A DNA stretch of 64,000 nt. It comes from an uncultured Candidatus Saccharibacteria bacterium. GTDB taxonomy: Bacteria > Patescibacteriota > Minisyncoccia > UBA6257 > 1-14-0-10-44-23. The notes beneath the pieces were generated by a model. It saw nothing but the letters and a program-made list of their open reading frames with translations, did not search any database and was not told the DNA's origin. Location of the stretch: positions 91,922 to 155,921 of the forward strand of contig CAZJVT010000001.1 in assembly GCA_964549935.1 (NCBI GenBank), read 5' to 3'. The position numbers were made by a program, and so were the translations under genes. Below, one piece after another: positions 6,781 to 54,470 of the stretch; the stretch's first letter is position 1; each line of letters starts with the position of its first letter.

Positions 6781-7026
6781 TCAGCCGTTGAACTTCGGCT
6801 CTTCGTCCTTCTCGTCCAAGCCCATGATGCGTCGCTCCCAAGATGTCGGGGGCGCCCACACGTCATAGGCTTGATCTGGCTGCGGCGGGGGTTCGACAGG
6901 GCGTTCGTGACGGTCGAGTCGCGGTCCAATCGGACGCAGCGATTTGACCGCGTCTTGCGCCTTCTTCAGCGCGCGGAAGCGCTTCGAACGTTGCCGAGTG
7001 CTGGACGGCTTCTTCTTTCCGGTCAT
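6781..7026 (-). CDS. Hypothetical basic/Pro-rich protein (81 aa) with a strong Shine-Dalgarno
   Basis: AAAGAGGAGGTG lies 6 nt upstream of the ATG on the minus strand. It is co-directional with the membrane protein and secG downstream. Confidence 0.5.
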   Translation of the reverse strand: MTGKKKPSSTRQRSKRFRALKKAQDAVKSLRPIGPRLDRHERPVEPPPQPDQAYDVWAPPTSWERRIMGLDEKDEEPKFNG

Positions 7027-7096
7027 GCGTACACCTCCTCTTTTTAGAGTAACAGCTTGCGCCCGCGTGTCAAAGGGAGGGGGCGGCCAAGGAAGA

Positions 7097-7116
7097 ATAT
7101 CTCATATATGATATAT
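7097..7116. promoter_or_regulatory. Near-palindromic operator-like site ATATcTCATATATGAtATAT (variant of ATATCATATATGATAT)
   Basis: Read directly; there is one mismatched pair. It is the first of two sites upstream of the HTH-murA gene. Confidence 0.45.
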
Positions 7117-7179
7117 TCCTGGAGGTAGAAAGCAGATTTAGCCCTATTATCAGCAGTTATCCACTTAGAATTACCAGAT

Positions 7180-7199
7180 TTATATCATATATGATATAA
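7180..7199. promoter_or_regulatory. Perfect 20-bp palindrome TTATATCATATATGATATAA (core ATATCATATATGATAT)
   Basis: Read directly. The same 16-bp core recurs at 19244, 37947 and (as a variant) 7097. Confidence 0.5.
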
Positions 7200-7245
7200 T
7201 GTACGAACTATGCCAAAACAAGCAAAAACACCACTTTCACCGTTT

Positions 7246-7379
7246 CCCCGTAGTACAAACTCGGTGTTTGCGCTTTGCGCTAAACATTTCAGAGCCAATT
7301 AAATTTTTCCTGCAATACCTTTTTACCAACATAATTTATTTCTACTTGTCCGAGCCGAGTTTGACTCCAAGGGCAGGCA
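7246..7379 (+). promoter_or_regulatory. Conserved 5' leader upstream of HTH-murA: block1 CCCCGTAGTACAAACTCGGTGTTTGCGCT and block2 CCGAGTTTGACTCCAAGGGCAGGCA
   Basis: Both blocks recur in gene orientation upstream of msrA (38500-38633 on the minus strand). The blocks contain mutually complementary CAAACTCGG/CCGAGTTTG segments. Confidence 0.5.
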
Positions 7380-7385
7380 CGCCAC

Positions 7386-8918
7386 ATGAAAAATACTAAA
7401 ACACCTTTGTCGGCATTTCATTCAAAAATTGGCAAACTGATTGAGGCGTTCCGTGAGCGCGGTGGATTAACGCAAGCTGAGCTCGCGAAGTTGCTCGGCA
7501 CCAGTCAGAGCGCTTTGGCGCGTATGGAGGACGGCGAACAAAACTTTACCGTCGAGACGCTGGAAAAAATCTCCAGTGCTCTCAAGCGCGACTTAGTCAC
7601 GCTTTCAAAAGGCACGGTTGATTTCGAAATTGAGGGCGGACACGCGCTACACGGGAGCGTCGTCACAAAAACTAGCAAAAACGCGGCCGTTGGCTTGCTC
7701 TGTGCGGCGCTGCTCAATCAAAACGCCACGACGCTTAAGAATATGCCGAAGATTGAAGAGGTGAAGCGCCTCATCGAGGTGCTAAAGAGCATCGGTGTCG
7801 CAGTTGAGTGGGTGGGTAATGATCTGGTAATTAATCCGCCGAAGAAATTAGAGCTCGAAAAGATGAACATCGAAGCAGCGATTAAAACTCGCAGCATTAT
7901 TATGTTTATCGGTCCGCTCATTCACCGCTTCAAAGAGTTTTCGTTGCCGCAGGTTGGGGGATGCAAACTTGGGAGTCGCACAGTGCGTCCGCACTTTTTC
8001 GCGCTCGAGAAATTAGGTGTAACTATCGAAGCAAAAAAGGATAGTTATATTGTGAAGCATAAGGGGCTGAAGCCGGCAGAGATTGTTTTATACGAATCCG
8101 GCGACACTGTCACCGAAAATGTTTTGATGGCTGCCGCGCTCATTCCGGGCACGACGACGATTAAGTTTGCCTCGGCAAATTATCAGGTGCAGGACATGTG
8201 TTTCTTTTTGGAATCACTCGGCGTCAAAATCGAGGGGATCGGCACGACGACCCTCGTTGTCCATGGAGTGAAAGAGATAAACAAAAATATTGTTTACTCT
8301 CCGAGCGAGGACCCAATTGAATCGATGTTTTTCATTGCCGCCGCTGCGGTTACGAACTCTTCGATTACCATCAAGCGCTGCCCGATAGACTTTTTGGAGC
8401 TGGAGCTTTTGAAGTTAGAAAAAATGGGTTGGAAGTTTACGCTTTCAAAGCCGTACAAGGCGGCGAACGGCCACACTAACTTGGTAGACATTAAAACAAT
8501 GCCGAGTAAGCTCGTCGCGCTCGAAGAAAAGCTCGAGGCGCGCCCGTATCCGGGTTTAAACATCGACAACCTGCCATTTTTCGCGGTCATTGCCACGCAG
8601 GCTGAAGGAAGGACTCTGATTCACGACTGGGTCTACGAAAAACGCGCTATCTATTATACAGAGCTCGACAAGCTCGGCGCCAACACCGTTTTGGCGGATC
8701 CACACCGTGTATTTATCCAGGGCGCTACACCGCTTCGGGCCGCGCAGGTGGTTTGTCCGCCGGCGCTGCGTCCCGCGACGATTATTTTAATCGGTATGCT
8801 GGCCGCCAAGGGTACAAGTATTTTGCGCAACGTCTACTCAATCAATCGTGGTTACGAGGATTTGGCGAATAGATTGAATGAACTGGGGGCGAAGATAAAA
8901 GTGTTGCGGGAGGAGTAG
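7386..8918 (+). CDS. murA: Fusion of an XRE-family helix-turn-helix domain with UDP-N-acetylglucosamine 1-carboxyvinyltransferase (MurA)
   Basis: N-terminal 75 aa match an XRE HTH (GLTQAELAKLLGTSQSALARME). The remainder aligns to MurA, including the catalytic Cys loop (QVGGCKLGSRTVRPH) and the C-terminal RGYEDLANRLNELGAKI region. Confidence 0.85.
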   Translation: MKNTKTPLSAFHSKIGKLIEAFRERGGLTQAELAKLLGTSQSALARMEDGEQNFTVETLEKISSALKRDLVTLSKGTVDFEIEGGHALHGSVVTKTSKNAAVGLLCAALLNQNATTLKNMPKIEEVKRLIEVLKSIGVAVEWVGNDLVINPPKKLELEKMNIEAAIKTRSIIMFIGPLIHRFKEFSLPQVGGCKLGSRTVRPHFFALEKLGVTIEAKKDSYIVKHKGLKPAEIVLYESGDTVTENVLMAAALIPGTTTIKFASANYQVQDMCFFLESLGVKIEGIGTTTLVVHGVKEINKNIVYSPSEDPIESMFFIAAAAVTNSSITIKRCPIDFLELELLKLEKMGWKFTLSKPYKAANGHTNLVDIKTMPSKLVALEEKLEARPYPGLNIDNLPFFAVIATQAEGRTLIHDWVYEKRAIYYTELDKLGANTVLADPHRVFIQGATPLRAAQVVCPPALRPATIILIGMLAAKGTSILRNVYSINRGYEDLANRLNELGAKIKVLREE

Positions 8919-9482: not shown

Positions 9483-10490
9483 ATGTTCATTCGCCGAATA
9501 GGAATTGATTTGGGTACGGCTAACACCATCGTGTTTGTGCCGGGGAAAGGCTTCGTTGTAAACGAGCCGACTATTGTCGCACTCGGACAGCCGAACAATC
9601 AGGTGCTCGCTGTCGGTCAGGAGGCGAAGAATATGATCGGCCGCACCCCGGCGGATATCGTTGCTTATAAGCCGCTCAAAGACGGCGTCATCGCCGACTA
9701 CTATATAACGAAGGCGATGCTGAAGTACTTTATCGGCAAAGCCATCGGTCAGTGGAACATCATCAAGCCCGACGTCGTTATTTCTGTGCCGGCCGGCATT
9801 ACGCAAAACGAGCGCCGTGCTGTGATGAACGCAACGCGCGAAGCGGGAGCAAAAGAAGTGTACATTGTCCGTGAGCCGATTTTGGCTGCGCTCGGTGCCG
9901 ACATTCCTATCAACTCGCATTCCGGAAACATGATCATCAACATCGGCGGGGGAACCAGCGAGGTGGCCGTCGTCTCACTTGGTTCAATTGTCAGCTGGGC
10001 TTCGGTGCGTATCGCGGGCAACAAGTTTGACGCCGCGATTATGGAGTACATCAAAAAGAAGTTTTCGGTGTACATCGGTGAGCAGACGGCCGAGCAGGTA
10101 AAAATTGAGGTTGGTTCGGCGCTGCCGATGAAGGACAAGCTTTCGATTAAGGTCCGTGGGCGCGACGTGGCCTCCGGGTTGCCGAAAGATATTTCGGTAA
10201 ACAGTAACGAAATCGCAGAGGCGCTTAACCCGCTGCTGATTGATGTGGCCACTAACGTGCAGACGGTGTTTAACTCGACCCCGCCGGAGCTCGTCGCCGA
10301 CATTATGGAGAAGGGCATTATGATTTCAGGCGGTGGCGGACAGCTGCGCAATATCGACGAGTTCTTTAAGCGTATGACCGGCGTTTCCTGCTACATCGCC
10401 GAGGAGCCGCTGTTTTGCGTTGCCAAAGGATCGGGTTTGATTCTCGATCACCTGGAGGTTTACAAGCGGACGCTGCTGAATAAGCGCTAA
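9483..10490 (+). CDS. mreB: Rod shape-determining actin homolog MreB (paralog 1)
   Basis: IGIDLGTANT phosphate-1 motif plus the GGG and ISGGG ATPase motifs; 335 aa. Confidence 0.9.
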   Translation: MFIRRIGIDLGTANTIVFVPGKGFVVNEPTIVALGQPNNQVLAVGQEAKNMIGRTPADIVAYKPLKDGVIADYYITKAMLKYFIGKAIGQWNIIKPDVVISVPAGITQNERRAVMNATREAGAKEVYIVREPILAALGADIPINSHSGNMIINIGGGTSEVAVVSLGSIVSWASVRIAGNKFDAAIMEYIKKKFSVYIGEQTAEQVKIEVGSALPMKDKLSIKVRGRDVASGLPKDISVNSNEIAEALNPLLIDVATNVQTVFNSTPPELVADIMEKGIMISGGGGQLRNIDEFFKRMTGVSCYIAEEPLFCVAKGSGLILDHLEVYKRTLLNKR

Positions 10491-15022: not shown

Positions 15023-16078
15023 ATGAAGCTCAAGAACCCATTTCGATTTTTTAGACATAATGTTGGTATCGATTTAGGTACTGCCAACACCCTTATTTAC
15101 GTTTCTGGTCGCGGCATTGTCGTCAACGAGCCGACTGCAGTGGCCATTAATACTAAGACAAATAAAGTTGTCGCCGTCGGGCATGAGGCTAAGAGTATGC
15201 TCGGGCGCACACCACTGCACATGAGCGTGGTCCGTCCGCTCAATGGCGGAGTTATTTCTGACTTCGAAATGGCGCAGGAAATTTTGCGTCAGTTTTTAAA
15301 AAAGTTAGCGAAGGGTGCAACGTTTGCGTACTATCAGAACGCTGTTGTTGGTGTGCCTGCAGACCTCACCGAGGTTGAGCGCAAGTCGGTAGAGGACGCG
15401 GTTATCGGCGCCGGCGTGAGCCAGGCATATATTATAGAAAGCGCGATCGCTTCAGCGCTCGGCGCTCGTTTGCCGGTTGGTGAACCGGTGGCCAACATGA
15501 TTATCGATATCGGTGGAGGGACGACCGAGATCGCCATTATTTCTATGGGCGGCGCGGTTACGATTCGCAGTGTTAAAGTGGGCGGCGATAGATTTAACGA
15601 CGATATCGTTAAGTTTGTACGCGATGAGTTCCAGCTGATCATTGGTGAGCCGACTGCTGAGGCGATCAAAATTGAGCTTGGCACAGCGATTCCGGTTAAC
15701 GAGAAGCTCGAGATGGCGATTTCCGGCCGCGATCTTTTGACCGGCTTGCCGAAGGAGGTGCTGCTTAAAGATATGCACGTGCGAGCCGCCATTAACAAGT
15801 CACTTCGCCAGATCGTTGACGCTGCCAAGGAGGTTATCGAGACCGCTCCACCGGAGCTTGCTGGCGACCTGCTCAAGCGGGGAGTGTATATGTGCGGCGG
15901 CGGCAGTTTGCTGCGTGGTATCGATGTGCTTATGAGTAAAGAACTCGCGACGACCGCGACTGTCGTTGATGATCCGCTCACGTGCGCAGCGCGCGGAGCC
16001 GGCATTGCCGTCGAGAACCTGGAGAAGTATGACTATATTTTAAATAGTCCGCTGAAGCCGAGAGACATCAAGCTATAA
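15023..16078 (+). CDS. mreB: Rod shape-determining protein MreB (paralog 2), first gene of mreBCD-mrdA
   Basis: VGIDLGTANT motif; 351 aa. It is followed by mreC, mreD and a PBP2 gene. Confidence 0.9.
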   Translation: MKLKNPFRFFRHNVGIDLGTANTLIYVSGRGIVVNEPTAVAINTKTNKVVAVGHEAKSMLGRTPLHMSVVRPLNGGVISDFEMAQEILRQFLKKLAKGATFAYYQNAVVGVPADLTEVERKSVEDAVIGAGVSQAYIIESAIASALGARLPVGEPVANMIIDIGGGTTEIAIISMGGAVTIRSVKVGGDRFNDDIVKFVRDEFQLIIGEPTAEAIKIELGTAIPVNEKLEMAISGRDLLTGLPKEVLLKDMHVRAAINKSLRQIVDAAKEVIETAPPELAGDLLKRGVYMCGGGSLLRGIDVLMSKELATTATVVDDPLTCAARGAGIAVENLEKYDYILNSPLKPRDIKL

Positions 16079-19242: not shown

Positions 19243-19260
19243 TATATCATATATGATATA
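19243..19260. promoter_or_regulatory. Palindrome TATATCATATATGATATA (third copy of the ATATCATATATGATAT site), overlapping the start codon of the next ORF
   Basis: Read directly. Confidence 0.45.
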
Positions 19261-19720
19261 TTCCCAGGCGGTCGTTTTAACCTTGCTTACTTCAGTCGTG
19301 CCCATCGCCGAACGCGGAGCGATTCCGCTCGGTATTACACTCGGGCTTTCGCCGCTTCTTTCCTATGTGCTAGTTACCGTTGGCAATGCGATTGTTATTG
19401 CTACCTTACTGCTTTTTCTCAAGCATTTTTCTGTATGGCTGATGCAGCATTCTGCGTATGCTAAGAAATTCCTAGAGAAGGTTTTTCACCATACTCGCGC
19501 CCATCAAGGTAAAAAATTCGAGCATTTTGGTTTTTGGACACTGGTTATTTTTGTGGCTATTCCTTCGCCGATTAATGGGGTTTGGACAGCCACGGTCTTG
19601 GGGTATCTTATCGGTATGCCGATACAAAAAGCCTTTTTTGCTATACTTACAGGAGGGGCTATCGCGAATGCCTTAGTTCTCGGCGGTACATTAGGCGTAA
19701 TCCATTTTATTCGAGGATAA
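19253..19720 (+). CDS. Small polytopic membrane protein (COG2426-like putative small multidrug export protein)
   Basis: 155 aa with four hydrophobic helices. The start codon lies inside the palindrome, so the exact start is uncertain. Confidence 0.4.
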   Translation: MIYSQAVVLTLLTSVVPIAERGAIPLGITLGLSPLLSYVLVTVGNAIVIATLLLFLKHFSVWLMQHSAYAKKFLEKVFHHTRAHQGKKFEHFGFWTLVIFVAIPSPINGVWTATVLGYLIGMPIQKAFFAILTGGAIANALVLGGTLGVIHFIRG

Positions 19721-35913: not shown

Positions 35914-37845
35914 ATGGCGATTTCGTTTAAGCGTTCAGATGAAAATCCGGTTCTAGTGCCACGCGTGGATATTTTATGGGAGGCGCAGGGGGCTTTTAAC
36001 GGATGTCCGGTCAAAGACGGCAAAACGATTCATTTAGTATATCGGGCCAACGCCGTTAACCGTGACGTGCACGGTGCGCGGATGAGTTTGCCGACGATTG
36101 GTTACGCAAAAAGCACCGACGGCGTGCACTTTTCGGATCGCCAGCAACTGATTACACCGACGGAGGAGTGGGAGATGTATGGCTGCGAGGACCCGCGCGT
36201 CACAAAAATGGGCGATACGTTTTATATTTTTTATACCGCGCTTAGTAAGTATCCGTTTCGCGCCGACGGCATCAGAGTCGCCGTCGCCACCACCAAGGAT
36301 TTCAAAAAGATTTTAAGCAAGCACCTGGTCACGCCGTTTAACGCCAAGGCGATGGCACTGTTTCCGGAAAAGGTAAACGGCAAATATGCGGCGCTTTTAA
36401 CCGTGCATACCGATATGCCACCGGCCTCTATCGCGCTGGCTTACTTTGATCGTCTCGAAGACATCTGGTCAGAGGACTACTGGCACGCTTGGTATAACTC
36501 GCTTTCTGCGCATACGGTTTCGCTCCGCCGCGGTCACAGTGACCATATGGAGGTTGGCGCTGTGCCGATTAAAACAACGAAAGGGTGGCTCTTTTTGTAT
36601 TCTTATATCGAGAACTACTTCTCACCACCGGCGACATTTGGTGTGCATGCCGCACTGCTCGACTTAAAGAATCCGACTAAGATTATCGGTCGTTCGACCG
36701 AGCCGATGATTGTGCCGAAAGAGGAGTACGAGCACTTTGGCAACGTTCCGGATATCACGTTTCCCTCCGGCGCGCTGGTTAAGGGAAGTTCGCTTGTTTT
36801 GTATTACGGTGCCGCGGATACCACTACCTGTATCGCCAGTCTGCCGCTCGCTGATGTTTTAGAAGACCTGCTGCAGCCGCGCCAGCGCGTGGCGCAGCTG
36901 CAGCGCTTTGCCGGGAATCCGATTTTGCGTCCGGAGCCGAGTCATCCGTGGGAGGCAAAGGCGGTTTTTAATCCGGCGGCTTTGTATCTCGAAGGCAAGG
37001 TGCACCTTTTGTACCGCGCCTCATCAAACGACAATACCTCAGTCTTCGGTTACGCTTCGAGTAAAGACGGGTTTACGATTGATGAGCGATTGCCGGATCC
37101 GGTTTACGTACCGCGCCTGCCGTTTGAGCAAAAAATGGTTGCCGGCGGTAACTCCGGCTGCGAGGACCCGCGGCTCACTATCATCGATGATGTGATTTAT
37201 ATGCTCTACACAGCTTTTGACGGCCGAAGTCTGCCACACGTCGCACTTACCACCATTTTAGTCTCCGACTTCTTGGCCAAGCGCTGGAAGTGGGCGACTC
37301 CGGTTTTAATTTCTAAACTGGATCAGGACGACAAGGACGCCGCGATTTTCCCAAAGAAGTTTGGTGGCAAGTACGCCGTCTTTCACCGTATCGACGGGAA
37401 GATCTGGCTGGACTTCGTCGACAAGCTCTACGGCATTTGGAACAAGCCGCTTGATGGGCGAGTCATTATGGAGCCGCGCAGCACGCAGCACGACAGTCGC
37501 AAGATTGGTATCGCCGGTGTTCCTATCGAGACTCCGGACGGTTGGGTTTTGATTTATCACGGCGTTTCGCGCCGCGAGGACCACCACTACCACCTGCGCG
37601 CGGCGCTGCTCGACAAAAACGACCCGACCAAAGTGCTTGCCCGTACCCGCGATGAAATTTTAGATACCGAAACACCCTACGAGCGCTACGGGGTAGTTCC
37701 CAATGTCGTGTTTTCCTGCGGCCACGTCGTCAAAAATGGCCAACTGATTGTCTACTACGGCGCGGCTGATACGGTTGTTGGCGTCGCCTCAATGCCGCTT
37801 AGCGAGCTCGTACAGAAGCTCAAGAGCGAAAAGGGTAGTGCGTAA
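35914..37845 (+). CDS. Tandem double GH130 glycoside phosphorylase domains in one 643-aa protein
   Basis: Two repeats of the NPVL/NPIL...FN..A...GK.HL.YRA...GYA.S.DG...CEDPR pattern, around residues 1-320 and 330-643. Confidence 0.75.
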   Translation: MAISFKRSDENPVLVPRVDILWEAQGAFNGCPVKDGKTIHLVYRANAVNRDVHGARMSLPTIGYAKSTDGVHFSDRQQLITPTEEWEMYGCEDPRVTKMGDTFYIFYTALSKYPFRADGIRVAVATTKDFKKILSKHLVTPFNAKAMALFPEKVNGKYAALLTVHTDMPPASIALAYFDRLEDIWSEDYWHAWYNSLSAHTVSLRRGHSDHMEVGAVPIKTTKGWLFLYSYIENYFSPPATFGVHAALLDLKNPTKIIGRSTEPMIVPKEEYEHFGNVPDITFPSGALVKGSSLVLYYGAADTTTCIASLPLADVLEDLLQPRQRVAQLQRFAGNPILRPEPSHPWEAKAVFNPAALYLEGKVHLLYRASSNDNTSVFGYASSKDGFTIDERLPDPVYVPRLPFEQKMVAGGNSGCEDPRLTIIDDVIYMLYTAFDGRSLPHVALTTILVSDFLAKRWKWATPVLISKLDQDDKDAAIFPKKFGGKYAVFHRIDGKIWLDFVDKLYGIWNKPLDGRVIMEPRSTQHDSRKIGIAGVPIETPDGWVLIYHGVSRREDHHYHLRAALLDKNDPTKVLARTRDEILDTETPYERYGVVPNVVFSCGHVVKNGQLIVYYGAADTVVGVASMPLSELVQKLKSEKGSA

Positions 37846-37944
37846 AACGGGTAACGTGTAACGTCAGACCAGCCGGGCGCGCAGTAGCGCGCCCGGAAAC
37901 ACGGCACAAAAGCCAAAAAGCCTTATAAAATAAGGCCTCTGTGA

Positions 37945-37964
37945 ATATATCATATATGATATAT
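37945..37964. promoter_or_regulatory. Perfect 20-bp palindrome ATATATCATATATGATATAT (fourth copy of the ATATCATATATGATAT site)
   Basis: Read directly. It lies between the convergent GH130 gene and msrA. Confidence 0.45.
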
Positions 37965-37966
37965 TT

Positions 37967-38470
37967 TTAAGCGTTTGGTAACGTGTGGCAAACGCGAGGG
38001 TCGTCGGGATTCTTTTGGAAATACTTTTGGTGGTACTCTTCGGCGCGCCAAAACGCGGTTGCGGCAGTAACCTCGGTGACGATAGGGCGGGGATATTTCT
38101 TAGCTGCAGTTAACTCGGCGATGACTTTTTCGGCCGTCGCTTTTTGTTCGGGGGAGCGATAGAAAATTGCTGAACGGTACTGACTACCGACGTCGGGCCC
38201 CTGACGGTTCATAGTCGTCGGGTCGTGTAAATCGAAAAACGTCCGCGTCAGTTTTTCAAACGAGGTCTTTGTGGGATTGAAGGTGACGTTAACCGCCTCG
38301 GCGTGGCCGGTGTTTTCGTAACAGACCTGCTTGTATGTTGCATTGTCGACGTGCCCGCCGGTGTATCCGACTTCGGTTTCAATAACGCCGGGTTGCGCGC
38401 GGAGAATGTCCTCGACACCCCAAAAACAACCTGCTGCAAATGTTGCTATTTCTGATTTTTCGTTTTTCAT
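37967..38470 (-). CDS. msrA: Peptide methionine sulfoxide reductase MsrA
   Basis: GCFWG active-site motif near the N-terminus. The ORF-track extension to 38518 begins with TTG and covers a conserved non-coding leader block, so the ATG at 38470 is preferred. Confidence 0.88.
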   Translation of the reverse strand: MKNEKSEIATFAAGCFWGVEDILRAQPGVIETEVGYTGGHVDNATYKQVCYENTGHAEAVNVTFNPTKTSFEKLTRTFFDLHDPTTMNRQGPDVGSQYRSAIFYRSPEQKATAEKVIAELTAAKKYPRPIVTEVTAATAFWRAEEYHQKYFQKNPDDPRVCHTLPNA

Positions 38471-38499
38471 AGAATATTGTGTCCGCAGTGAGAGGCGAA

Positions 38500-38633
38500 T
38501 GCCCGCCCAAGGAGTCAAACTCGGCTGCTATCTCTCAAGCGCTATGCTATAGCATAGCAGTGAATATGATATGAGTTATTTTTCTAGTAAAAGTTCAGCG
38601 CTTTAGCGCAAACGCCGAGTTTGTACTACGGGG
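38500..38633 (-). promoter_or_regulatory. Conserved 5' leader upstream of msrA (blocks CCCCGTAGTACAAACTCGGCGTTTGCGCT and CCGAGTTTGACTCCTTGGGCGGGCA), which also encloses a 16-bp perfect palindrome CTATGCTATAGCATAG
   Basis: The two blocks are 27/29 and 22/25 identical to those upstream of murA at 7246-7379. Confidence 0.5.
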
Positions 38634-38650
38634 TAGCAACCTCATTCATA

Positions 38651-39016
38651 CTAGTAGTACATCCCGATGATGTAGTAGAGCGTCAGGAAGAAGGTGAAGA
38701 GCGAAAGGAGTAAGACGCCACCGGCGGCAAGCTCTTTAACTTTGGCGATGCCCGGGTGGTGTTCCTGAACGAGCGCGTCGGCGAGTTCCTCGATTGCGGT
38801 GTTAAATATTTCGGCGACAAGCGTGACGAAGATGAGGACGATGATAACGATACGCTCCGGAACCGGGACGGCGAAGAAGGCGAGTAAGGTTATCGCGATA
38901 ATACCGGCGACAATTAAGAGGCGGAAGTTGCGTTCCGTCGAGGCGTGGAGCCAGCCGCGCATCGCGCCGCCGAAGCTCGTCATAAATGGCTGCCGTTGTT
39001 TTGTAGGGTGTGTCAT
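38651..39016 (-). CDS. dgkA: Diacylglycerol kinase / undecaprenol kinase (prokaryotic DgkA family)
   Basis: Three TM segments plus the EIFNTAIEELAD motif; 121 aa. Confidence 0.8.
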   Translation of the reverse strand: MTHPTKQRQPFMTSFGGAMRGWLHASTERNFRLLIVAGIIAITLLAFFAVPVPERIVIIVLIFVTLVAEIFNTAIEELADALVQEHHPGIAKVKELAAGGVLLLSLFTFFLTLYYIIGMYY

Positions 39017-54173: not shown

Positions 54174-54470
54174 ATGACTCCAATTACATACTTCATACTC
54201 GGACTGGTGGTGGGTGGGGTGGTGCTTCTTTTGTGGTTGCGGCGTAGCAAGACCGGGCTCATCGCCCGGCAGCAGGGCGAGAAGGCCGCGCACAAGCAGG
54301 CCATCATCGCTGCCTTTGCCGGAAAGGGCCAACTGACCAACGACGAGGTCCAAAAGCTGCTTGGGGTTAGTGATGCAACCGCGACGAGGTATATGGATGA
54401 GCTCGAAAAGGAGGGCAAAGTGAAGCAGGTAGGCCCAACCGGCCAAAACGTATACTACGAGAGGATTTAA
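54174..54470 (+). CDS. Small membrane-anchored winged-helix DNA-binding protein
   Basis: An N-terminal TM segment (ITYFILGLVVGGVVLLLWL) is followed by an HTH (LTNDEVQKLLGVSDATATRYMDELEKEGKV). Confidence 0.45.
   Translation: MTPITYFILGLVVGGVVLLLWLRRSKTGLIARQQGEKAAHKQAIIAAFAGKGQLTNDEVQKLLGVSDATATRYMDELEKEGKVKQVGPTGQNVYYERI

Follow-up and report, generated by a model that had tools for sequence, protein, structure and literature searches.

A conserved palindrome at the murA promoter of Patescibacteria is a predicted autoregulatory operator for an HTH-MurA fusion protein

The subject of this work is a perfect 16-bp palindrome, ATATCATATATGATAT, and its relationship to a gene encoding MurA fused to an XRE-type helix-turn-helix (HTH) domain, both found in a 64,000-nt stretch of DNA from an uncultured Candidatus Saccharibacteria bacterium, a member of the Patescibacteria (assembly GCA_964549935.1, contig CAZJVT010000001.1, positions 91,922 to 155,921; hereafter the window, in whose numbering all positions are given). 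MurA is the enzyme for the first committed step of peptidoglycan synthesis and the target of fosfomycin. Comparison across genomes indicates that the palindrome is probably an autoregulatory operator, bound by a dimer of the HTH-MurA protein and overlapping the core promoter of its gene. The evidence that carries this interpretation is the presence of the palindrome beside the fusion gene at all 79 informative loci, a pattern characteristic of autoregulation, together with the way in which the symmetry of the site is maintained and the reappearance of the same sequence beside the same type of HTH protein in toxin-antitoxin operons. The features at the center of the analysis are as follows.

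7386..8918, + strand: HTH-MurA fusion gene, 510 aa, with an XRE-type HTH (aa ~10-66), a short linker, and a full-length MurA domain
7099..7114, strand not applicable: site 1, ATCTCATATATGATAT, one mismatch, 83 bp upstream of site 2, center to center
7182..7197, strand not applicable: site 2, exact palindrome, the predicted main operator and core promoter of HTH-murA
19244..19259, strand not applicable: site 3, exact palindrome, 29 nt past the stop codon of mrdA (PBP2), containing the ATG (19253) of a PF06695 gene
37947..37962, strand not applicable: site 4, exact palindrome (22 bp with its flanks), between the msrA stop codon (37967) and the msrA terminator hairpin
7171..7200, + strand: promoter-like element, with -35-like TTACCA at 7171-7176, TG at 7192-7193, and -10 TATAAT at 7195-7200

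A motif search of the window found the three exact copies and the single one-mismatch copy listed above, and no others at up to three mismatches to the 16-mer. The three exact copies share an 18-bp extension, TATATCATATATGATATA, and the copy at 37947 extends to a 22-bp palindrome, AATATATCATATATGATATATT. A first-pass annotation made from the sequence had already described the palindrome at four places, and this is confirmed, except that the first copy lies at 7099, 2 nt from the reported 7097. It had also judged four copies to be more than chance would allow, which is borne out by 100 dinucleotide-preserving shuffles, where the mean was 0.13 copies, the maximum was 2, and 4 was never reached. 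The G+C content is ~50% along the whole window, and the copies are therefore not due to low complexity. The annotated surroundings of the sites were likewise correct: two copies are upstream of the HTH-murA gene (Pfam HTH_3 and EPSP_synthase), one overlaps the start of the membrane protein at 19253, whose ATG is inside site 3, and one lies between the end of the GH130 gene and the convergent msrA gene, the stop codons of which are at 37845 and 37967.

The relationship between the palindrome and the fusion gene was assessed in two samples. The unbiased sample comprised 80 metagenomic HTH-MurA loci picked by protein only (peptide TSQSAVAR[MI] plus tblastn), all of which contain open reading frames (ORFs) of HTH+MurA length. 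When the 400 bp upstream of HTH-murA were searched, the palindrome was present at up to three mismatches in 79 of these 80 loci, the best 16-mer match having no mismatches in 22 loci, one in 37, two in 15, three in 5, and seven in 1. The lone failing locus, the one with seven mismatches, has just 19 bp of upstream DNA, and hence every informative locus has the site. As a control, 75 of the 1,235 400-bp windows of the same 511 kb match at up to two mismatches, and nearly all of these are the murA-upstream sites. The second, biased sample was a scan for the exact 18-mer in one genome per GTDB species, which returned at least 118 loci. Patescibacteria make up only a few per cent of the GTDB collection; at least 71 of the 118 18-mer matches listed belong to the Candidate Phyla Radiation (CPR, the Patescibacteria), as assigned by record title or gene content. 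Among the matches listed, a phmmer search using the protein of the window places an HTH-MurA gene directly downstream of the 18-mer at 35 loci, the E-values of the MurA domain ranging from 1e-8 to 1e-194. According to record labels, the pair is conserved over sampled lineages that include Saccharibacteria, Paceibacteria, Zambryskibacteria, Nomurabacteria, and Colwellbacteria. The suggestion of the first-pass annotation that the palindrome is an operator for the XRE domain of the MurA fusion is thus strongly supported by comparative genomics, with the binding itself being a prediction.

The palindrome also coincides with promoter elements. An extended -10 element, TGnTATAnT, is present on each strand, made up of one arm and the three bases that follow it, and at site 2 the extended -10 TGATATAAT occupies 7192-7200, its hexamer being the right arm of the site plus 3 nt. 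A promoter scan of site 2 returned TTACCA-18-TATAAT with the TG, at a sigma-70 score of 10/12. In a logo of 78 sites, TG-n-TATA-n-T is conserved on the murA side, with no conserved -35, and the consensus of the metagenomic sites is T-ATATCA(T/C)AT(A/G)TGATAT-A. The end of the 18-mer is mostly 8-13 nt from the ATG, with peaks at 8, 9, and 11 nt that put the ATG 6-9 nt past the -10 hexamer, and the start codon is 6-11 nt past the hexamer in about half of the loci. This spacing implies leaderless or near-leaderless mRNAs, and we infer leaderless transcription from it. A murB gene in divergent orientation begins ~8 nt beyond the other end of the palindrome in ~20 of the unbiased loci, where the whole intergenic region is ~35 bp, and in six loci the divergent gene is mreB.

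This arrangement raises the question of whether the element is simply a promoter, consisting of back-to-back extended -10 elements that drive bidirectional leaderless transcription with no dedicated repressor. The presence of TGnTATAnT in each arm and its flank, the sigma-70 score of site 2, and the start codons at leaderless distance on both sides in murB-murA pairs all fit such an explanation, yet we consider it unlikely. Conservation of the left arm does not depend on a divergent gene for it to serve: in the 18 loci with a co-directional upstream neighbor, 108 positions include 3 mismatches, all of them at a single locus, compared with 3 mismatches in 120 positions beside divergent murB. 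A -10 element has no need of the fixed CA-YATR-TG center or the GATAT arms, and the 62 generic TGnTATAAT elements found elsewhere in the same loci have no palindrome, whereas TGATATAnT is almost exclusive to it (77 of 103 occurrences in the unbiased loci, both strands). Furthermore, the palindrome tracks one type of HTH over unrelated operons and phyla, and the nearest relative retains sites 3 and 4 even though neither can serve as a promoter of the adjacent protein genes. Bidirectional promoters built from symmetric -10 elements were reportedly described by Warman and colleagues in 2021 (Warman et al. 2021), and they resemble the present case in that divergent transcription proceeds from one compact, symmetric, AT-rich element; here, however, the two hexamers are separate, ~14 bp apart, around a conserved center, and the symmetry is kept without a divergent gene. 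Taken together, the conservation of the left arm, the confinement of TGATATAnT, and the fact that the HTH type can be followed into toxin-antitoxin operons are the signature of a dimeric site placed over a promoter. Three features by which XRE operators are recognized are found here, namely an adjacent HTH_3 gene, a dyad site of 16-20 bp over the -10, and the co-occurrence of site and regulator.

In the protein encoded next to the palindrome, the HTH matches PF01381 (HTH_3) at aa 19-71 with an E-value of 4.9e-14, and the MurA part aligns over the full length to MurA structures (PDB 5ujs, E 2.8e-61), retains the catalytic Cys loop GGCKLGSR as well as the SKNAA, NIDNLP, and NRGYE motifs, and passes NCBIfam PRK09369 (345 bits versus a cut-off of 297). 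Judged by these motifs, the MurA enzyme in the fusion is complete and apparently active. An AlphaFold2 model (pLDDT 86.9) consists of a separate four-helix HTH, a low-confidence 10-residue linker, and a high-confidence canonical MurA fold, the HTH helices spanning residues 10-25, 30-37, 41-48 (the recognition helix, SQSALARM), and 56-66. In an alignment of diverse fusions, the recognition helix, TSQSA(V/L)ARME.G.QN, is near-invariant, with T39, S40, Q41, S42, A43, R46, E48, G50, Q52, and N53 being invariant. The nearest PDB sequences to the HTH are generic XRE proteins (HipB, HigA 6af3, C.BclI, SinR, and 434 repressor, E 1e-5 to 1e-3). The HTH+MurA architecture is present in all close homologues, and the named ones come from Patescibacteria/Parcubacteria-type metagenome-assembled genomes (MAGs).

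A further line of evidence on what may bind the palindrome comes from toxin-antitoxin operons. Among the matches listed, the same 18-mer occurs at or in Gp49 (PF05973)/XRE toxin-antitoxin operons at 15 loci, which belong to CPR, Bacillota, Chloroflexota, and other groups. The 18-mer overlaps the -10 there, and CPR examples read TTGACA-N4-18-mer, so that the right arm supplies the TATAAT. The antitoxins, along with a few free-standing small XRE proteins, match the HTH of MurA with E-values of 1e-5 to 1e-15, and they share with it the recognition-helix pattern SQS.(V/I)(A/S)R(M/L/I)E.G..N. The likeness to these Gp49/HigA-type operons is therefore twofold, an identical 18-mer over the -10 and a similar recognition helix, whereas the difference is that the HTH partner here is an enzyme and that no toxin gene is present in the window. 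Autorepression of the promoter by the antitoxin is established for the HigB/HigA-like family, for example for Acinetobacter baumannii HigBA2 (PMC5906591). The operator of Vibrio cholerae HigA2, TGTACGC-N5-GCGTACA (PMC11006873), differs in sequence from ATATCATATATGATAT. At two of the loci (L083:6381 and L116:4305), the palindrome is not upstream of the toxin gene but separates it from the antitoxin gene, and the antitoxin would accordingly have a promoter or operator of its own inside the module. The possibility that the site in the window is itself a toxin-antitoxin operator was rejected, as phmmer found no Gp49-like ORF in the window and the HTH is fused to MurA.

The same data suggest another owner for the palindrome, an independent XRE protein whose gene lies in another part of the genome, for example a HigA-like antitoxin, in which case the HTH of MurA would have some other role. 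At CPR loci L004, L044, L102, L009, L073, and L114, the neighbor of the 18-mer is indeed a gene for a free-standing XRE protein whose recognition helix is nearly identical. This explanation is nonetheless decidedly improbable, since the palindrome accompanies the fusion gene in all informative loci, the helix is conserved as much in the fusion as in the antitoxins, and no second such XRE or Gp49 toxin is present in the 64-kb window or in most of the 10-kb loci. By phmmer, the window holds no second XRE of the MurA-HTH type, no Gp49 toxin, and no murB. One ORF at 54174..54470 was considered as a second binder and set aside, as it gave a weak match only and encodes a membrane-anchored protein with a different HTH.

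The conservation of the four copies in the window was examined in the nearest relative available, GCA_964641225.1 (contig CAZXKC010000006.1; stretches L199, L204, and L206). This genome is syntenic with the window across ~50 kb, with amino-acid identities of 86% for MurA, 80% for PBP2, and 74% for GH130, and it contains an ortholog of each site.

Site 1 (7099): ortholog at L199:9880, ATCTCATATATGAGAT, separated by 85 bp from site 2 of the relative, versus 83 bp in the window
Site 2 (7182): ortholog at L199:9965, exact
Site 3 (19244): ortholog at L204:11976, exact, again containing the PF06695 start codon
Site 4 (37947): ortholog at L206:12016, exact, 8 nt past the stop codon of the last gene of a convergent dgkA-msrA-acetyltransferase operon

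Between the window and this relative, 63 of the 64 palindrome bases are identical, whereas the 40-bp flanks are 25-57% identical, which indicates selection on all four copies in this clade. Relatives at a greater distance (L200, L202, L205, and L207) have a single murA site and none at the PBP2/PF06695 junction (L200 and L205) or the GH130 end (L207), and sites 3 and 4 are therefore clade-specific gains. Further exact copies in the nearest relative precede murG and a gene for a 72-aa protein, and one lies in the gap between the M50 protease gene and proS (L029, L070, and L199:17837). These observations bear on the proposal, also made in the first-pass annotation, of a small envelope-related regulon. 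In support of it, the partners of the palindrome elsewhere are mostly murB, sometimes mreB, and in one case murG, which is preceded by a separate site, but sites 3 and 4 are absent in distant relatives and occupy non-classical operator positions, so that this part of the proposal is less well supported. As a separate matter of taxonomy, GCA_964641225.1 is labelled 'uncultured Candidatus Saccharibacteria', while the best named homologues of the window proteins are of Harrisonbacteria, Taylorbacteria, or Paceibacterota type, and the label of this assembly, and perhaps of other listed third-party (TPA) bins, may be unreliable.

The gain of sites 3 and 4 within one lineage, at positions that are not promoters, is also what might be seen if the palindrome were a dispersed repeat of the REP or MITE kind, or a recombination site, without regulatory meaning. 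A right flank of ATTCC... common to sites 1 and 3 and to site 1 of L199 would fit, as would the occurrence of the 18-mer within longer intergenic hairpins in Abiotrophia genomes. This alternative is very improbable given that the 64 kb contain only four copies and the 511 kb of CPR DNA roughly one per locus, in every case at murA, that conserved terminal repeats and target duplications are lacking, that the 16-mer is identical between species while its flanks diverge, and that it occupies a fixed place with respect to the murA start codon over phylum-level distances. A longer unit common to sites 1, 3, and 4 (the palindrome plus ATTCCCAGG...) was considered and dropped, as the likeness is short and inconsistent. 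An abundant AT-rich repeat without promoter association, which the first-pass annotation had named as the finding that would speak against an operator, is not what was seen in the window and the loci surveyed. Finally, an RNA hairpin acting on translation or stability from a 5' or 3' untranslated region (UTR) could draw on the start codon within site 3 and the placement of site 4 in a 3' UTR, but it is scarcely credible, as position 7 is C in 26 of 78 sites and position 10 is G in 16 of 78, rarely together, and these mostly non-compensatory changes argue against a hairpin, as do the conservation of the sequence itself rather than of pairing alone, the weakness of an A/U-only 6-bp stem, and the fact that the murA transcript would begin downstream of the palindrome. 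At the gathering threshold, Rfam matches in the window were limited to four tRNAs, with none at the palindrome.

In the autoregulatory operator model, a dimer of HTH-MurA on the palindrome would cover both extended -10 elements and would therefore repress both its own gene and the divergent gene, which is murB in many lineages. It is from the overlap with the -10 alone that we infer repression rather than activation. In the window, the divergent target would be the gene for an 81-aa basic protein, reached through site 1. The operator is duplicated upstream of murA in both the window and the nearest relative, with sites 83-85 bp apart. Tandem pairs are also present in other lineages, and the center-to-center spacings across the loci are 20, 33, 34, 48, 55, 61, 62, 72, 72, 73, 74, 74, 74, 83, and 85 bp. 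Most of these are near whole helical turns, which suggests cooperative binding on the same face of the DNA. Three features of the window other than murA are relevant to how the remaining sites might act, along with the terminator that follows one of them.

6781..7026, - strand: gene for the 81-aa basic protein, a divergent ORF with a Shine-Dalgarno AGGAGG leader
19253..19720, + strand: PF06695 (Sm_multidrug_ex) small membrane-protein gene (Pfam), with synteny in L200, L204, and L205
37967..39016, - strand: convergent operon of DAGK_prokar (38651..39016) and msrA (37967..38518) (Pfam), the 3' UTR of which contains site 4
37908..37937, - strand: terminator-like hairpin GCCTTA/TAAGGC with a T-run, downstream of msrA and site 4, read from the sequence

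Site 1 is 71 nt from the start (7026) of the 81-aa gene, which is a candidate second target, probably through this site. A Pfam scan found no family for its product, and an equivalent uncalled ORF with a Shine-Dalgarno sequence can be read upstream of site 1 in L199. For sites 3 and 4, the mode of action is speculative: they might act as a roadblock to transcription running on from mrdA into PF06695-tpiA, control an antisense promoter directed toward dgkA-msrA, or serve as decoys or in looping. The PF06695 gene is downstream of mreB-mreC-mreD-mrdA and is followed by tpiA and a SIMPL gene, and the N-terminus of its product, MIYSQ..., matches homologues that start MSQ.... An assignment of this protein as a DedA-like lipid-carrier flippase was rejected, as a relaxed Pfam scan showed no such link.

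A more far-reaching version of the model, which we put forward only tentatively and consider doubtful as a whole, would make HTH-MurA a metabolite-sensing enzyme-repressor and a conserved, possibly the main, controller of peptidoglycan precursor synthesis in Patescibacteria, and it combines this with three further steps. In the first, occupancy of the active site (by UDP-GlcNAc/PEP, or by UDP-MurNAc as feedback) would set the grip of the HTH on the bidirectional leaderless murA/murB promoter; modulation of DNA binding by MurA ligands is speculative. In the second, antitoxins and HTH-MurA would cross-regulate, which is possible because the Gp49/XRE modules use the same operator, and toxin-antitoxin activation would thereby be tied to cell-wall synthesis. 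In the third, the operator would have been recruited to mre/mrdA-PF06695 and dgkA-msrA, acting there in a non-classical mode by roadblock or control of antisense transcription.

Several points weigh against the autoregulatory operator model, even in its simpler form. Every functional step in it is reasoned from sequence. MurA enzymes are generally monomers, and the HTH has only four helices, features that do not favor a dimer. Some of the conservation of the palindrome may be due to recognition by RNA polymerase, as the site is also a promoter. The peptide used for retrieval fixed the recognition helix in the 80-locus set. The rest of the genome could also encode XRE proteins with this specificity, for instance antitoxins of toxin-antitoxin systems, and these might compete with HTH-MurA for the sites or be their actual owners. 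Site 3 holds a start codon inside an operon and site 4 lies between a stop codon and a terminator, and as neither is at the promoter of a protein gene, simple promoter occlusion does not explain them. Lastly, leaderless geometry does not apply to murA in the window itself, where an insertion of ~175 bp separates site 2 from the murA ATG (7199-7385) in alignment with relatives L199 and L200. The insertion opens with a decayed copy of the 5' end of the gene.

7211..7303, + strand: relic 5' end of HTH-murA, MPKQAKTPLSPF..., 12 nt past the 18-mer, 30 codons, with a stop codon at 7301

The L199 protein starts MPKTKPEARTPFH, and the present start in the window is MKNTKTPLSAF at 7386. As a result of the insertion, the murA mRNA in the window would have a ~180-nt leader with a short upstream ORF. 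A riboswitch or small RNA in the insert was rejected, as there was no Rfam match at E ≤ 1 in 7000-7450 and the 175-nt insert folds no better than shuffled sequences (z = -0.49).

The predicted system can be compared with several that are known. BirA, PutA, and NadR are bifunctional enzyme-repressors, or 'trigger enzymes', with ligand-dependent DNA binding. The likeness to these is in logic, in that a metabolic enzyme has a DNA-binding domain directed to its own or its pathway's promoter and would couple metabolism to transcription, while the folds and pathways differ and ligand-dependent binding is purely hypothetical for HTH-MurA. With the autoregulated XRE/Cro-C1 repressors (434 Cro/cI, SinR, HipB, and HigA), the shared features are the HTH_3 fold and an inverted repeat of 16-18 bp in their own promoter, over the -10. 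The differences are that the HTH here is fused to a complete MurA, without the usual separate dimerization or sensor domain, and that the operator sequence is not among the characterized ones. A related sequence is Motif_112, WNRTTATCATATATGATAAYNW, from a computational catalogue of XRE motifs, where it is predicted upstream of XRE-family genes from Flavobacteriia seeds (Wang et al. 2025, PMC12565409). It has the same 14-bp core, TATCATATATGATA, as the palindrome in the window, but its outer bases are TTATCA...TGATAA rather than ATATCA...TGATAT. The term 'carboxyvinyltransferase' is absent from the supplement of that study (PMC12565409), and neither MurA nor CPR is tied there to Motif_112. In the full-text literature searched, which does not cover all journals, we found no description of an HTH-MurA fusion or its operator.

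The possible implications extend beyond this one gene. Patescibacteria account for a large share of bacterial diversity and have tiny genomes with few recognizable regulators, and to our knowledge, there are almost no experimentally known regulatory circuits in this group. The palindrome and HTH-MurA constitute a concrete candidate protein-DNA pair for the first committed step of cell-wall synthesis, one that is directly testable. If the catalytic state of MurA feeds back on DNA binding, it would be a new example of an enzyme directly regulating its own pathway. The compact, bidirectional, and apparently leaderless promoter/operator cassette could serve in genetic tools for the few cultivable Saccharibacteria, and the shared operator and helix point to an evolutionary link between the antitoxins of toxin-antitoxin systems and a housekeeping enzyme.

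A number of further observations were made at the loci surveyed. The window has two MreB/Mbl paralogues, one at 9483..10490 just downstream of HTH-murA and the other at 15023..16078 heading mreBCD-mrdA, an arrangement that is kept in relatives L199, L200, and L205. In the nearest relative, the M50 protease gene and proS are separated by a 780-bp gap without called genes (L199:17237-18019); in the window, they are 25 bp apart. About 58 nt to the left of the palindrome at L199:17837 is a hydrophobic ORF of 36 aa with a GGAG Shine-Dalgarno sequence, followed by a 70-aa membrane ORF, and the two may encode small membrane peptides under the same operator. A divergent gene for a DUF4446 membrane protein (~160 aa) is located 300-600 bp upstream of HTH-murA in L149, L150, L161, L170, L175, L190, L196, and L144; in L149, L175, and L196, the palindrome there has a degenerate left arm, ggTTTTGTCATATATGATATaaa, and in L175 and L196, this degenerate palindrome is an additional copy lying upstream of the main site.

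Outside murA contexts, tandem palindromes exactly 74 bp apart occur in Saccharibacteria-labelled genomes at L002:5650/5724, L015:5152/5226, and L062:4054/4128, which suggests a recurrent two-operator module; the L015 pair is between a choloylglycine-hydrolase-like gene and a gene for a 414-aa multi-pass membrane protein. In L012, L075, L076, and L091, labelled as oral Saccharibacteria, the 18-mer is 3 nt upstream of a gene for a 199-aa RNase H-like protein (RVT_3/RNase_H), a candidate for a conserved non-envelope target. Two sets of matches appear to be of a different nature. In Abiotrophia, the 18-mer is inside longer perfect hairpins (for example, tcccaT-18mer-Atggga or ttgcccga-18mer-tcgggcaa) in many intergenic places (L043, L060, L090, L106, L067, L096, L092, L093, L101, L059, and L112), and these resemble a palindromic repeat dispersed within that genus, with no relation to the operator of CPR. 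Short contigs of four unrelated assemblies (L020, L055, L065, and L088, from Mycobacterium sp., Senimuribacter, Muribaculaceae, and an Armatimonadota MAG) carry an almost identical, highly AT-rich sequence with the 18-mer, which probably derives from a common contaminant.

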